Shown here piece by piece: positions 33,615 to 38,872 of a stretch of 64,000 nt of DNA. The stretch lies in contig JAGQHJ010000001.1 of assembly GCA_020431915.1 (NCBI GenBank), positions 23,044 to 87,043 on the forward strand. The letters run 5' to 3'. Source of the stretch: Cyanobacteria bacterium HKST-UBA04. Lineage in GTDB: Bacteria > Cyanobacteriota > Vampirovibrionia > Vampirovibrionales > JAGQHJ01. The position numbers and the translations under genes were made by a program. Within the stretch, counting starts at the first letter, position 1. Each line of letters starts with the position of its first letter. The notes beneath the pieces are model-generated. The model was not told the DNA's origin, made no database searches, and saw only the letters and a program-made list of their open reading frames with translations.

Positions 33615-34553
33615 TCATTCTTTTACCCACAGCCTGCCTACGGCTTCCGGGTGGGCTAAAACTCGGTTTCGCCCGGCCTCAAGCGGTCTAAAGCCGTGGG
33701 ACTGCAGGGCCTGGCGCACAGGTACGGCATGGGGAGAGGTCATTTCGCCATGGCCGAGTACCACCAGCGACCCTGCCGCCATGGCCTTCTTTAAATTAGC
33801 AGCCAGGGTATCCCAGTCCTGTCGGGGCAGTTGATACCACACATTGTTTAAAAACAGCACCACCGGCTGACACAACGGCCCTTTGGCCAGCTCCCGCACA
33901 TCAACCGAATCCTCGTCCACCATCAGATGGTCCATCAAGGATCGGTCCACCTCAACCGGCAAAAACGCCGCGTTGTTCACCTCGTCAATGTCCCATTTCA
34001 CCCCATCCCCGTGAAAAACCGGGGCATCCCCCTCCATGCGGCGAAACGCCAAGGAGGCATGGTCGGTTACCGGCGAAAAAACGTGACCCACCGAGGTTTC
34101 CAATGCCCGCTGCAAGGTGTCTACATCTTGCTGGCCAGGCCGAAGTCGAAGCAGCCGCTGCTTCGACAGCATTTTGAGCCGGCTCGGCAGCAAGTCCGAC
34201 ACGTACACCACAAACGACTCCAAACGACGCCCCAGGGCACGGCTTAACAAGGTGGCCGACTGGCCCACGGCCACCGACCCATCGGAGGCACCGGGCATAT
34301 ACAACGACCAGCACACCGGCTCTTGCGACGCATCGCTCGGCCGGCTGGCCTCATAATTAAGCATGGCCTGCTTAACGGCCAAATACGTGGGTATCGCCTC
34401 GGTAATATCGCACGAACAATCCAGCAATTGGTCGCCCCAATGGTGCTGCACCGCCACATTGGCAAACCGCGGCCGGCTGGCCCCAGCTACCCTATTTTTC
34501 AGAGCCACAACGGGACGATCAGCGTCCTTTAAGGCCGTTACCTGTAATACCAT
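33615..34553 (-). CDS. Divergent CheR-like SAM-dependent methyltransferase-fold protein (paralog 1)
   Basis: MPGASDGS, YVSDLLPSRL, VLFLNNVWYQL, MAAGSLVVLGHGE and C-terminal GRLWVKE. Most degenerate of the three. Confidence 0.55.
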   Translation of the reverse strand: MVLQVTALKDADRPVVALKNRVAGASRPRFANVAVQHHWGDQLLDCSCDITEAIPTYLAVKQAMLNYEASRPSDASQEPVCWSLYMPGASDGSVAVGQSATLLSRALGRRLESFVVYVSDLLPSRLKMLSKQRLLRLRPGQQDVDTLQRALETSVGHVFSPVTDHASLAFRRMEGDAPVFHGDGVKWDIDEVNNAAFLPVEVDRSLMDHLMVDEDSVDVRELAKGPLCQPVVLFLNNVWYQLPRQDWDTLAANLKKAMAAGSLVVLGHGEMTSPHAVPVRQALQSHGFRPLEAGRNRVLAHPEAVGRLWVKE

Positions 34554-34777
34554 CTCAACCAAACCCGATTCCCAACCACCACGCACGACCACACCGAACT
34601 TATGGCAAATTCATACCTTATTTCATGTGGGCGCACCGTAATTTTCGTTATACCTTAGTCCAACATAAAAAACAACCATTCATGGATTTGCTCAGCACAG
34701 CCTCAACCCGACCCACTGCTTGGGCCGAATATGAGCAACTTCAGCGGTTCAATACCGTATTCCAAAAGGAATACGCG

Positions 34778-35017
34778 TTACACGAATTCCTGTAATTCGC
34801 GGCCATAGCGCTTCAGCGCCGACATGAACCCGTAGGTTGTAATGGTTTTAAGCACTTTGGTCGACACGCGAAGGCTGACCATGCGGTTCAACTCAGGCAC
34901 CCACAGGCGTTTAACCTGGGTATTGGGGTGCTGGGGGTGGCGGTGCTTCTTGTTCGAGAAACAAAGCTTGTTGGCGCGGTTGTAGCGCTTTCTGGACACT
35001 TGGCATTTGCGGGACAT
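34778..35017 (-). CDS. rpmB: 50S ribosomal protein L28
   Basis: MSRKCQVS.K...N...FSNKK.R..Q.PN.Q.KRLWVPEL...VSLRVSTKVLKTI. Confidence 0.93.
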   Translation of the reverse strand: MSRKCQVSRKRYNRANKLCFSNKKHRHPQHPNTQVKRLWVPELNRMVSLRVSTKVLKTITTYGFMSALKRYGRELQEFV

Positions 35018-35181
35018 CGGAATCTATTTCCTACTTGTAAACACCTGAGCGCACCAGTCTAGCACGGGGGCCCCTCTAAACTCAAGTCGAGGGCTTGACG
35101 GAGGTTTTTATTTATTACTACAGGTATAAATTCAAGGCCTCCAGGGGAATCCCAAAGCCAAACGACCCCCGTAGAGGGAAA

Positions 35182-35255
35182 GCCGGGTAACCTGCCTGAA
35201 ACCGGCCCGCGCTGTCGACTTCCACCATATCGAGGAGGTTGCCCGGTAGGCAACC
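35182..35255 (+). ncRNA. Candidate structured 5' leader with mutually exclusive stems
   Basis: 35182-35193 pairs with 35236-35247 (12 bp, 2 G-U). Alternatively 35237-35243 pairs with 35249-35255, and 35182-35186 with 35202-35206. No Rfam family recognised. Confidence 0.25.
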
Positions 35256-36671: not shown

Positions 36672-36700
36672 GCACCCTGCCCTCCTCTTCCGCACTATCC

Positions 36701-37774
36701 CTACTGCTTGATCCAAAGCTGGCCTTCATAATCGTGCCCCGTTACCGAACGCCGCGGCACCTCAAACACGGGCTCGAAACCTTCCTGGCGCAGCAAGGCC
36801 GGCACATCCAACCGGTGTTTGGGCAGATCGCCGGGCGAGAATTCACCCAAAGCCGCTTCCATCTGCGCTTGCGAAACCCCCGGAAATAACCGTTGTGCCG
36901 CCAAAAAGGCCAACTGCTTTGCCATGCGGCTGGCGGCCAACGCCACCTCGGACGGCAGGGGGGCCTCCAGTTTTCCGGTCACCAGCAGGCTGCCAGGGGC
37001 CATTTGCTGGCCAAGCAGCCGGGCCACGCGCTGGCATTTCTGCGGGTCCTCCTTGTCCATATACCCCCACACATTGCGAAACAGCACCACACTGGGGCCA
37101 TCCTGGGGCAGGGGATTGGCTTGAAGGTCGGCTTCAATATCGGCCTCGCGAAACGTAACCGGCTCCCGAAGCGCATCACTAACCCGGTACCACTGGTGCT
37201 CGGGCTGACGAAACGGCAACCCGTAGGCATTCAATATCCCGGCCAGGGGAATGGGGATCGACACGGCCTGGCTAAACACCGCACGGTTGTGCCAGGCCTT
37301 AGGATCCGGCGCGTCATTTTGCTGGGCAAACGCTTGGACGGCCTGGTCGGCCAACTCAAGCTCCCGGTCAAAAACCTCGACGTACCCTTCCTGGGCCACG
37401 GCCACCCGGCCCGGATGCAGATCGGAAGCATCAATGGGGTAGGCGGTCATCGGCTTCGAGTCCGGGTGAAGCAGGCCGGTCAATCTCAGGGCATGGGCCA
37501 GGCTCCAGGCATCGCTGCCGTCACTTGCCGCATACACCCGAATGGGGTTGTCGGCAGGCATCCCTTCCGGGAATGTTTCCCGGATACGCATGGCCGCAGG
37601 CAACAGCACGGTCGGCTCGCGCAGCCACGAGGTGGTTTGCCCGGCCACCCCCCGGGGTGTAAGAAACTGACGGGTATACGCGTCGCTGATACCGGCAAAA
37701 CGACTGGCGGACGATGGCCGACGTATACCACACACCACCGCAGGACGAGGCCACAATGAAACGGGCAATGGCAT
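36701..37774 (-). CDS. Divergent CheR-like SAM-dependent methyltransferase (paralog 2)
   Basis: IRVYAASDGSDAWSLA, IDASDLHPGRVAVAQEGY, VTFREADI, VVLFRNVWGYM, MAPGSLLVTG and C-terminal GQLWIKQ. Confidence 0.7.
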   Translation of the reverse strand: MPLPVSLWPRPAVVCGIRRPSSASRFAGISDAYTRQFLTPRGVAGQTTSWLREPTVLLPAAMRIRETFPEGMPADNPIRVYAASDGSDAWSLAHALRLTGLLHPDSKPMTAYPIDASDLHPGRVAVAQEGYVEVFDRELELADQAVQAFAQQNDAPDPKAWHNRAVFSQAVSIPIPLAGILNAYGLPFRQPEHQWYRVSDALREPVTFREADIEADLQANPLPQDGPSVVLFRNVWGYMDKEDPQKCQRVARLLGQQMAPGSLLVTGKLEAPLPSEVALAASRMAKQLAFLAAQRLFPGVSQAQMEAALGEFSPGDLPKHRLDVPALLRQEGFEPVFEVPRRSVTGHDYEGQLWIKQ

Positions 37775-37780
37775 TCGGCG

Positions 37781-38872
37781 CTACGGGACCTCCTTTTTCA
37801 CCCAAATCCGGCCTTCGGCCGCCGTCCCCAAAAACGGGGCCAACTGATCTTTGGCAAGGGGCTTAAACCCGGCATGCTCGAGCATCGGATTAATATCAAA
37901 AAACAGGCTGCTGTAGGCCTTGGAATGGGCCATCATGCCCGCCACCAGGTGTGCCACCGGGTTATTGCCATACACGTCGAGAAAATCCTGCAAGCCACGC
38001 TGAATGAGATGGCGCTTGCCCTCGGCATCGGTTTCCTTGTCCATCATCCCCACCACCAGCAAACTGCCGGGGGCCAGTTGTTGGCCCACCAGGTCAAGTA
38101 GGGTCTGACCACCATTGGCCAGGCGATCTTTGATATAGGGAAAGACATTGCGCAACAACACCACCCGTTGCTGGGCGGGGGTGTTGTTTTTGCTTGCAAA
38201 AATTTCGAGGCTGCCGCGGGTATAGCGCACCGAATCGCGCAATGCGGCATCGACCTGATGCCAGGCAAAGCCATCCTGCATGGGCACCACACCATTGGGC
38301 AGTAATGCTTCTGCCGCCACGGCCGGTACCGAGGAGCCGCCGCCATCGTAGGGCACAAATACACTATCCATGGACCAGTCGTCGCGGTTGGGCACCATCA
38401 AATCCGATGCAAACTGGCGCAACGCATCGTTGGCCGAGCCCAATTCGTTTTTGGGCCTCTGCTCCAGCTCGATATACCCGGCTTGGGCAATGGCCACGCG
38501 GTAAGGACTGAGTTCTATCCCCTCGATGGGATACCGCCCGGCGCTCGGCGGCTGACCAAAGGCCTTGTCGGTCAGGTTCAGCACATGGCGCAGGCTCCAG
38601 GGCTCGCTGAAGTCGCTGGCCCCAATGCTAAGGATGGGCACCCCCTGCGGAAACCGGGCCTTGATGAGCAGGGCCAACGGCAGCATGACTTCGGGTTCGC
38701 GAAGCAACCAGGTGATTTGGGGCGGCGTATCGGCTTGCGGGGTCATCTGCTGCTTGAACAAATCGACACCGATGCCTGAAAAACGCAAAGCTCCAGACGC
38801 ATTCGGTGCGCTTTGGCGAGCCAAAACGGGAAACGCTGGTGACACCTCAGGCAAAATCGCTGAAAGCCGCAT
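37781..38872 (-). CDS. Divergent CheR-like SAM-dependent methyltransferase (paralog 3)
   Basis: ILSIGASDFSEPWSL, IEGIELSPYRVAIAQAGY, VVLLRNVFPYI, LAPGSLLVVG and C-terminal GRIWVKK. Confidence 0.72.
   Translation of the reverse strand: MRLSAILPEVSPAFPVLARQSAPNASGALRFSGIGVDLFKQQMTPQADTPPQITWLLREPEVMLPLALLIKARFPQGVPILSIGASDFSEPWSLRHVLNLTDKAFGQPPSAGRYPIEGIELSPYRVAIAQAGYIELEQRPKNELGSANDALRQFASDLMVPNRDDWSMDSVFVPYDGGGSSVPAVAAEALLPNGVVPMQDGFAWHQVDAALRDSVRYTRGSLEIFASKNNTPAQQRVVLLRNVFPYIKDRLANGGQTLLDLVGQQLAPGSLLVVGMMDKETDAEGKRHLIQRGLQDFLDVYGNNPVAHLVAGMMAHSKAYSSLFFDINPMLEHAGFKPLAKDQLAPFLGTAAEGRIWVKKEVP

Follow-up and report, generated by a model that had tools for sequence, protein, structure and literature searches.

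What do CheR-like methyltransferases do at a locus that holds no chemotaxis genes? The question is raised by a 64,000-nucleotide stretch of Cyanobacteria bacterium HKST-UBA04 (assembly GCA_020431915.1, contig JAGQHJ010000001.1, positions 23,044 to 87,043), called the window throughout, whose minus strand encodes three such proteins, A, B and C, between window positions 33,615 and 38,872. A preliminary description had read them as a cluster of exported enzymes, each headed by a short leader in place of the N-terminal domain of CheR. The reading favoured here, with rather better than even confidence, is that they belong to a set of seven single-domain CheR-type methyltransferases dependent on S-adenosylmethionine (SAM), which work outside chemotaxis and apply CheR-like chemistry to non-receptor proteins, with the leader serving as a portable targeting or docking motif. 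The three genes of the window are:

Paralog C: 37781..38872, minus strand; open reading frame (ORF) with ATG at 38872 and alternative GTG at 38902, 363 amino acids; leader-bearing single-domain CheR-like methyltransferase
Paralog B: 36701..37774, minus strand; ORF, 357 amino acids; leader-bearing single-domain CheR-like methyltransferase
Paralog A: 33615..34553, minus strand; ORF with ATG at 34553 and alternative upstream GTG at 34592, 312 amino acids; most divergent copy

All three ORFs were confirmed. B and C resemble each other far more closely than chance would allow (32% identity, 345 residues aligned, E 9e-42), whereas A is only distantly related (E 2e-5 against B, 1e-3 against C) and was recruited to the family by an iterative genome search (jackhmmer with B as seed, E 5e-34). 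Every motif listed for them earlier is present in the alignments: (A/G)ASD(G/F)S, an acidic D/E followed by R.A.AQ.GY in B and C, VL(F/L)(R/N)NV, A(P/A)GSL(L/V), a terminal G.(L/I)W(V/I)K and a leader with R-F-(S/A)-(G/N). The family is nevertheless larger than a three-member cluster: a genome-wide count gives seven paralogs, the other four lying at C161:8244-9290, C169:5773-6867, C22:18233-19300 and C97:841-2016 of the same genome (G000; 2.7 Mb, 87.65% complete) and named below by their contigs.

C and B form a tandem pair, C first, and direct reading of the junction places the ATG of B 6 nt past the TAG stop of C, so that the two are very probably co-transcribed. The order helicase-C-B is repeated in two other metagenome assemblies, where the genes were called at 363 and 357 amino acids. 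Against strains at 99% nucleotide identity, the ratio of nonsynonymous to synonymous polymorphism (pN/pS) was 0.08-0.09 for B, from 9-10 substitutions, and 0.31-0.37 for C, from 11-12 substitutions; together with the intact, same-length copies, these low ratios indicate that B and C are real genes under constraint. An intact 312-residue variant of A, P0004, occurs in public data. A promoter scan returned no promoter-like sites, and terminators were at chance level.

Fold and catalytic residues

The Pfam CheR domain (PF01739) is matched by B at 36 bits, against a gathering cut-off of 27, and by C at 18.6 bits, below the cut-off; A has no direct Pfam match, and NCBIfam gave no meaningful match. 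Across 100 family members, 96 match PF01739 at E<=1e-3. A PDB search with a profile of the seven genomic paralogs returned exclusively CheR at E<=0.04 (best 5xlx, 6e-5), and it was this profile, built from all three window proteins together with the other paralogs, that found CheR in the PDB. AlphaFold2 models of B reached a predicted local distance difference test score (pLDDT) of 73.7 with 7 sequences and of 83.7 with 100 sequences, the latter with a predicted template modelling score (pTM) of 0.81. For both models the top 10 Foldseek matches in the PDB were all CheR (E 8e-9 to 7e-6), followed by other class I methyltransferases (AviRa, NNMT, Coq5). Judged from sequence and modelled structure, the family of A, B and C thus has a CheR-type class I (Rossmann-like, seven-stranded alpha/beta) SAM-dependent methyltransferase fold, with S84, G86 and D118 conserved for its motif I loop and its acidic residue after strand 2, as its motifs had led the preliminary description to propose; Pfam, the PDB profile search, both models and Foldseek concur.

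The family is distinct from canonical CheR. CheR_N (PF03705) is matched by none of the 100 members, and T.FFR lies at residue 35-55, compared with about 90 in canonical CheR, which bears out the suggestion that a short leader has replaced the CheR N-terminal helical domain. The canonical CheRs found in relatives (41 genomes of the same order) reach 147-182 bits on PF01739, are 275-430 amino acids long and carry CheR_N and SAACSTGQEPYS; family members reach at most 52 bits on PF01739, and canonical CheRs score 17-37 bits on the family profile. In a maximum-likelihood tree (119 rows), the 20 canonical CheRs fall into one clade (support 100), divided by a long branch from all 99 family rows, so the proteins do not group with the CheRs of relatives.

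The catalytic residues of CheR are R98 and Y235 in S. typhimurium numbering (PMC3447774); a residue count along the 1bc5 alignment identifies Y235 with the Tyr of R-N-V-M-I-Y-F. HMMER aligns the family motifs to CheR T.FFR, AACS(T/S)G.EPYS, ATD, F.CRNV.IY and PGG. In the PDB profile alignment, family T-W-L-F-R corresponds to T.FFR and ASDGSE to ACS(T/S)G.E, and RNV..Y and PGSL fall on their CheR equivalents. Columns conserved in at least 90% of the 100-member alignment are M1, F26, R52, S84, G86, I114, D118, N234 and G267 in B numbering. The counterparts of the two catalytic residues in B are:

R52 codon of B: 37619..37621, minus strand; equivalent of CheR R98 in T.FFR(E/D), at least 90% conserved, aligned to CheR FFR by HMMER
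N234-V-W-G-Y238 of B: 37061..37075, minus strand; equivalent of CheR R-N-V-M-I-Y235, with N234 at least 90% conserved and Y238 invariant in B, C, C161 and C169

Every one of the seven paralogs has a Tyr after N-V (B, C, C161 and C169 at +4, the others at +3), and six of the seven retain the SAM-binding motifs, the R98-equivalent arginine and a Tyr at or adjacent to the Y235 position. The T.FFR arginine is missing from A, which has alignment gaps at these columns. Residues ~80-110 of A hold an apparent tandem duplication of the motif-I segment, with a degenerate ASRPSDA...WSL and then GASDGS (EASRPSDASQEPVCWSL followed by PGASDGSVAVGQSATLL). Both features make A possibly catalytically altered and, on its sequence, it may be a regulatory or altered-function copy. 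The replacement of CSTG by ASDG/ASDF, listed earlier as a difference from CheR, holds for A, B and C and fails for the C22 and C97 paralogs, which retain GCSTGE/GCSSGE.

These residues bear on the idea that the genes are decaying pseudoenzymes left behind after a loss of chemotaxis. A fits such a history, lacking the R98-equivalent arginine and having a disrupted motif-I region, and both A and C fall below the Pfam cut-off. However, six of the seven copies retain R98, the Tyr and the SAM-binding motifs, other strains have the ORFs intact and at the same length, with pN/pS below 0.4, and the family is old, class-wide and found alongside canonical CheR, all of which makes decay very improbable.

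The N-terminal leader and its occurrence on unrelated proteins

In place of the CheR N-domain, the family has a leader segment of 25-45 residues. All seven paralogs start with M-x-(L/I/V)-x-x-(I/L/V), continue with a Pro/Arg/Ala/Ser-rich segment and reach (R/K/A)F(A/S/G)(G/N/L) at residue 25-43. Members from genomes of low guanine-cytosine (GC) content read M-(R/K/Q)-I...P-x-F-(K/T/G)-(S/T), about 20 residues ahead of T.FFR, with the Phe at residue 12-20. The equivalent of F26 is at least 90% conserved among the 100 family members, so that the leader of 25-30 amino acids ending R-F-(S/A)-(G/N), first noticed on the window proteins, is real, common to the paralogs and family-wide. In the window, the motif lies at:

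R25-F26-A27-G28 of B: 37691..37702, minus strand; leader motif, inside disordered residues 1-37 (window 37664-37774)
R30-F31-S32-G33 of C: 38774..38785, minus strand; leader motif, from alignments
R29-F30-A31-N32 of A: 34458..34469, minus strand; leader motif, from alignments

Residues 1-37 of B remain under pLDDT 50 even in the model built from 100 sequences, and such conservation of a Phe within a stretch modelled as disordered is what a short linear motif would show. By a simple hydrophobicity and motif test, as distinct from SignalP, the leader does not qualify as a signal of the Sec, Tat or lipoprotein type. There is no hydrophobic core, the maximum Kyte-Doolittle value of a 10-residue window in the first 45 residues being 0.5-1.1 in the seven paralogs (0.88 in B) and reaching 2.0 in just one of the 100 family members, and the leader contains neither an RR.F(L/K) twin-arginine motif nor a lipobox. 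Other known signals were also considered and rejected. A double-glycine leader cleaved by a C39 peptidase is a poor fit to F and R at -3 and -4 and to the proline-rich composition, and low-GC members have F-K-S or F-T-S; a prepilin signal would call for a hydrophobic stretch after the motif, and none is present. Mimicry of a mitochondrial or plastid presequence, with R-F as a cleavage-type motif, is a remote idea at most, the low-GC members being Asn-rich, unlike presequences.

The same leader heads proteins that are not methyltransferases. With genes called by our own crude procedure, RF[GAS]G was found 18 times at residues 10-60 of non-methyltransferase genes, compared with 6.0 +/- 2.5 in composition-preserving shuffles (maximum 14 in 300), and the motif is about three times as dense within the first 50 residues as elsewhere. 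The leader occurs on about a dozen unrelated orphans of the genome, ten leader-bearing orphans having no Pfam match. The leader of C, MRLSAI...RF(S/A)GI, recurs near word-for-word on the unrelated orphan C126_91771, and P0155, which is homologous to an unrelated membrane protein, begins with the A-type string PRFAN(T/V)AV. A further leader-type N-terminus, MRIHRHLPPTSPLRFGARI, at G000:C107:11210-12022 (plus strand) was missed by the strict pattern, which makes the count of leader-bearing proteins a lower bound. Another leader-bearing orphan lies at C97:18004-18774, on the same contig as the C97 paralog.

The membrane protein in question, C107_6240, is a multi-pass protein of 650-670 amino acids with two paralogs in the same genome (C3_4796 and C153_3901) and three metagenomic homologs (P0155, P0156 and P0157):

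Membrane-protein orphan family: G000:C107:6240-8243, C3:4796-6754 and C153:3901-5886, with P0155-P0157 and L098:6001-7542; 510-670 amino acids, conserved FPFTTQQQM

Identity within this family is 22-37% (28-37% for the metagenomic homologs), and all six members carry the leader, as TRFGGG, RVAFGRAG, SPGFGF, SPRFANTAV, PAHFGFWGG and VARFGGGG. The portability of the leader across unrelated families points to a targeting, export or docking signal rather than a structural element specific to methyltransferases. In a single case, the P0155 gene is followed by an Rce1-like (CPBP) protease gene (L098:7698-8690). A word-index homology search with B, and with the orphan C11_2307, found near-identical copies only.

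Family distribution and chemotaxis gene content

In the tree, the seven paralogs make up three old subgroups inside one clade with a support of 96. The first (support 99) holds B, C, C161 and C169 with the metagenomic P0006, the second (support 100) holds C22 and C97 with P0008, and A stands on a separate branch as the third. A local expansion is suggested for the four copies of the first subgroup only.

A HMMER scan of 1.84 billion representatives gave 2370 matches at E<=1e-3 and 308 at E<=1e-10; among the top 150, most are 250-300 amino acids long, with (A/G)(C/A/S)SDGSE and a short N-terminus. In a 301-genome sample of the phylum, about 76 genomes of the same class have strong full-length matches (130-252 bits, in ORFs of 250-300 amino acids, starting at profile position 2-3), with 1-5 copies each. 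These carriers have genomes of 1.6-2.5 Mb, and 20 loci fetched from them have 30-39% GC. Large genomes of the same phylum (3-8 Mb) give weak matches only, starting at profile position 32-39, which is the pattern of canonical CheR. Genome sizes and GC content across class and phylum are in keeping with a non-photosynthetic relative of the cyanobacteria. The claim of an expanded, lineage-specific family is borne out at most as an apparent expansion of B, C, C161 and C169, and lineage specificity gives way to a class-wide family.

In-frame stops listed for many of the class matches do not reflect recoding: in L094, the one case checked, the profile match overshoots the true stop by two codons. 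Two metagenomic members, P0011 and P0017, go by the name "chemotaxis methyl-accepting protein methylase" in their public source, and literature searches found no paper on the family, which is class-wide yet uncharacterised and auto-annotated as CheR.

Is the missing chemotaxis context a local matter? The preliminary description had noted that the window contains no che genes and none for methyl-accepting chemotaxis proteins (MCPs). This is confirmed and extends to the genome, in which, at its 87.65% completeness, no MCPsignal, CheW (a domain also carried by CheA), CheB_methylest or canonical CheR was found. Of the 41 order genomes, 31 have MCPs (1-8 each), and canonical CheR tracks them, present in all 31 MCP-positive genomes and missing from nine of the ten MCP-negative ones. 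In one MCP-less relative, a CheR domain of canonical score (179 bits; G006:C1:1558496-1559080, L052) lies inside a 1503-residue ORF that may be a multidomain CheR fusion. The family itself occurs in eight of the 41, five MCP-positive and three MCP-negative, the MCP-less carriers G016 and G022 being 94-95% complete. Its presence in genomes with and without MCPs indicates that its occurrence is independent of chemotaxis.

These counts leave next to no credence for the idea that the proteins are ordinary chemotaxis CheR paralogs whose receptors are missing from an incomplete assembly. The Pfam CheR match, the incompleteness of the assembly and seven flagellin genes would be in keeping with it. 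It is contradicted by the data: MCPsignal, CheW and CheB are all absent, against 1-8 MCPs in 31 of 41 relatives, the receptor-recognising CheR_N is absent, the tree separates the two groups, MCP-bearing relatives also have a separate canonical CheR, and the family is found in the nearly complete, MCP-less G016 and G022.

The seven flagellin genes have N-termini reading MPL(I/V)VNTN. The genome looks flagellated yet chemotaxis-less, with a complete export gate, and nine other order genomes are also MCP-less. Two export-gate genes are present:

FHIPEP/FlhA 1: G000:C126:29991-32084 (L041, L074); in a fliPQR-flhBA run, by gene order, sizes and N-termini
FHIPEP/FlhA 2: G000:C135:12935-15046 (L042, L075); adjoining a FliF-type gene (Pfam YscJ_FliF) and rod-like genes

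Both FlhA types (~870 and ~700 bits) are found in nearly all of the 41 order genomes, the two least complete showing one.

Cellular role and comparison with known systems

Within the favoured reading, the chemistry would probably be CheR-like, namely methyl esterification of glutamate side chains on non-receptor proteins, going by the catalytic residues that are retained. With no CheB in the genome, such a methyl mark would not be enzymatically reversed. The leader would act as a portable short linear motif that delivers proteins to, or docks them at, a partner which they share and which is specific to the lineage, with a non-classical export or sorting route as the likeliest candidate.

Gene neighbourhoods are varied. 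Across 20 class-level loci, the recurrent neighbours are prepilin-type genes (6 loci) and nucleotidyl-transferase genes (5 loci), too few for a conserved operon partner, which was rejected, and no conserved neighbour at these loci or at the seven local copies points to a processing enzyme or fused partner. The C22 paralog, with GCSTGE, lies in a methyl-cycle neighbourhood (L013:6865-10677), between a convergent S-adenosyl-L-homocysteine hydrolase gene and a divergent gene for a pyridoxal phosphate (PLP) enzyme of Cys/Met metabolism, the latter across a 78-bp gap. About 660 bp downstream of the C97 paralog is a gene for a 396-residue Kelch-repeat protein (L014:2678-3868, G000:C97), a domain more typical of eukaryotes.

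In the window, the neighbours of the methyltransferase genes are housekeeping genes (S18, pyruvate kinase, DinG-type helicase and NFACT/RqcH). Ribosomal protein S18 (31623-32039, plus strand; Pfam 85 bits over residues 18-68), whose gene lies 1.6 kb from A, has an unusual C-terminal tail of about 65 residues, Gly/Arg/Pro-rich and of RGG-like low complexity. Two orphans, neither reaching the cut-off of any Pfam family, flank or separate the paralogs:

Orphan: 32146-33492, minus strand; 448 amino acids, DxDxDG-type calcium-binding motifs, weak FG-GAP, EF-hand and dockerin matches
Orphan: 35292-36671, plus strand; 459 amino acids, a single hydrophobic segment plus a Pro-rich region, convergent with B

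Could the enzymes simply be cytoplasmic? As housekeeping or regulatory methyltransferases they would act on the cell's own non-receptor proteins (e.g. flagellar, pilus or translation proteins), with the leader docking them to a cytoplasmic hub such as a scaffold, chaperone or protease. This is possible, though it falls clearly short of probable. The retained catalytic motifs and purifying selection agree with it, as do the methyl-cycle neighbours of C22, the housekeeping surroundings of the window copies and the retention of 1-5 copies in small genomes class-wide, and disordered short linear motifs commonly mediate intracellular docking. However, no conserved neighbour or fused partner indicates a substrate or hub, and an N-terminal docking motif is hard to explain on about a dozen unrelated orphans that include multi-pass membrane proteins.

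Export, as the preliminary description had it, is unlikely in the form of effectors that are secreted by a non-classical route (a flagellar-type III gate or a type IV system) and then methylate prey, host or competitor proteins. The portable, disordered, non-Sec leader is also found on unannotated orphans, leader genes are clustered in the window, and two FlhA-type export gates are encoded in the genome. M-x-L-x-x-I...RFxG is loosely like the bipartite signal of early flagellar substrates (PMC8983047), and the class includes the cultured V. chlorellavorus, an epibiotic predator for which injection of effectors has been predicted (PMC4451040). These points are met by several others. The motif is at best F-x-x-hydrophobic, not F-x-x-x-hydrophobic, and the Phe at 12-20 in low-GC members is nearer the N-terminus than the Salmonella system tolerates; no member matches Flg_bb_rod or another flagellar family at E<=1e-3; the two FlhA genes are near-universal in the 41 order genomes, against a family present in 8, so the two do not co-vary; and several leader proteins are multi-pass membrane proteins. 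Most members, moreover, are encoded by low-GC genomes of about 2 Mb, and a predation-specific role is argued against if these carriers are gut-type and non-predatory, as genome size and composition suggest. A broader version, in which the leader, M-x-hydrophobic...(R/K)F(G/A/S)(G/S/N), is an undescribed secretion or sorting signal of the whole class of non-photosynthetic cyanobacterial relatives, the CheR-like enzymes are its main enzymatic cargo, exported to modify the cell's own surface structures or the proteins of a partner, prey or host, and the genome, having lost all chemotaxis, has enlarged the arsenal to seven copies, is likewise doubtful.

Several observations weigh against the favoured reading of a CheR-like enzyme with a portable leader. 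The TM-scores of B are modest, at 0.44-0.52 to full CheR and 0.66 to the isolated CheR1 catalytic domain, and B has large insertions relative to CheR. The equivalence to Y235 depends on the alignment, the Tyr lying one position earlier than in CheR in most family members. No substrate candidate has emerged, neighbourhoods being unconserved across the 20 class-level loci and the seven local copies, and the leader statistics rest on crude gene calls. Finally, the conserved Phe could belong to a cofactor or substrate lid that orders on binding; the presence of the leader on an unrelated membrane-protein family argues against this explanation, without excluding it.

If the family does act outside chemotaxis, it offers a route to the non-receptor substrates of glutamate methyl esterification in bacteria, of which, to our knowledge, almost none are known. 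The disordered, Phe-centred leader is a candidate for a novel signal of targeting or export, in a little-studied lineage whose members include gut commensals and an algal predator. CheR is used to flag chemosensory pathways, and a large CheR-annotated clade without the receptor-recognition domain, in receptor-less genomes, means that inferences of chemotaxis from CheR counts may be inflated for this group.

Among known systems, the closest is CheR itself (PF03705 plus PF01739; 1AF7, 1BC5, 5FTW, 5XLX), which gives the family its best PDB match both in sequence and in fold. The family shares with it T.FFR (R98), a motif I of the xSxGxE type, an acidic residue after strand 2, R-N-V...Y (Y235) and PG(G/S)-L. 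It differs in motif I, which reads (A/G)(A/C/S)SDGS(E/D) instead of CSTGEE, and in length, the local copies having 312-391 amino acids with large insertions compared with about 280 in CheR. Proteins of the CheR-TPR (WspC/FrzF) type and CheB-CheR-PAS-kinase fusions are, like the family, CheR catalytic domains beyond classical flagellar chemotaxis. CheR-TPR proteins keep CheR_N. Unlike these proteins, the family has no CheR_N, no added folded module and no chemosensory neighbours. CheR-TPR acts in pathways with alternative cellular functions, and the CheR-TPR proteins described sit in chemosensory gene clusters (PMC3447774).

The leader has its nearest counterpart in early substrates of flagellar type III export, which combine a disordered N-terminus, hydrophobic residues at 2-7 and an F-x-x-x-hydrophobic gate-recognition motif at least 19-30 residues downstream (PMC8983047). 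Common to both are the disordered N-terminus, small non-polar residues after Met1, a Phe motif about 20-40 residues in (for the paralogs of this genome), the lack of a cleavable hydrophobic core and the presence of flagellar export gates in the genome. By this analogy the two signals are only loosely alike: the leader reads F-(A/S/G)-(G/N)-(I/V), i.e. F-x-x-hydrophobic, or F-(G/K/T)-S, its Phe falls at 12-20 in low-GC members, and the proteins that carry it, unlike flagellar substrates, have no axial-protein homology and do not co-vary with FlhA.

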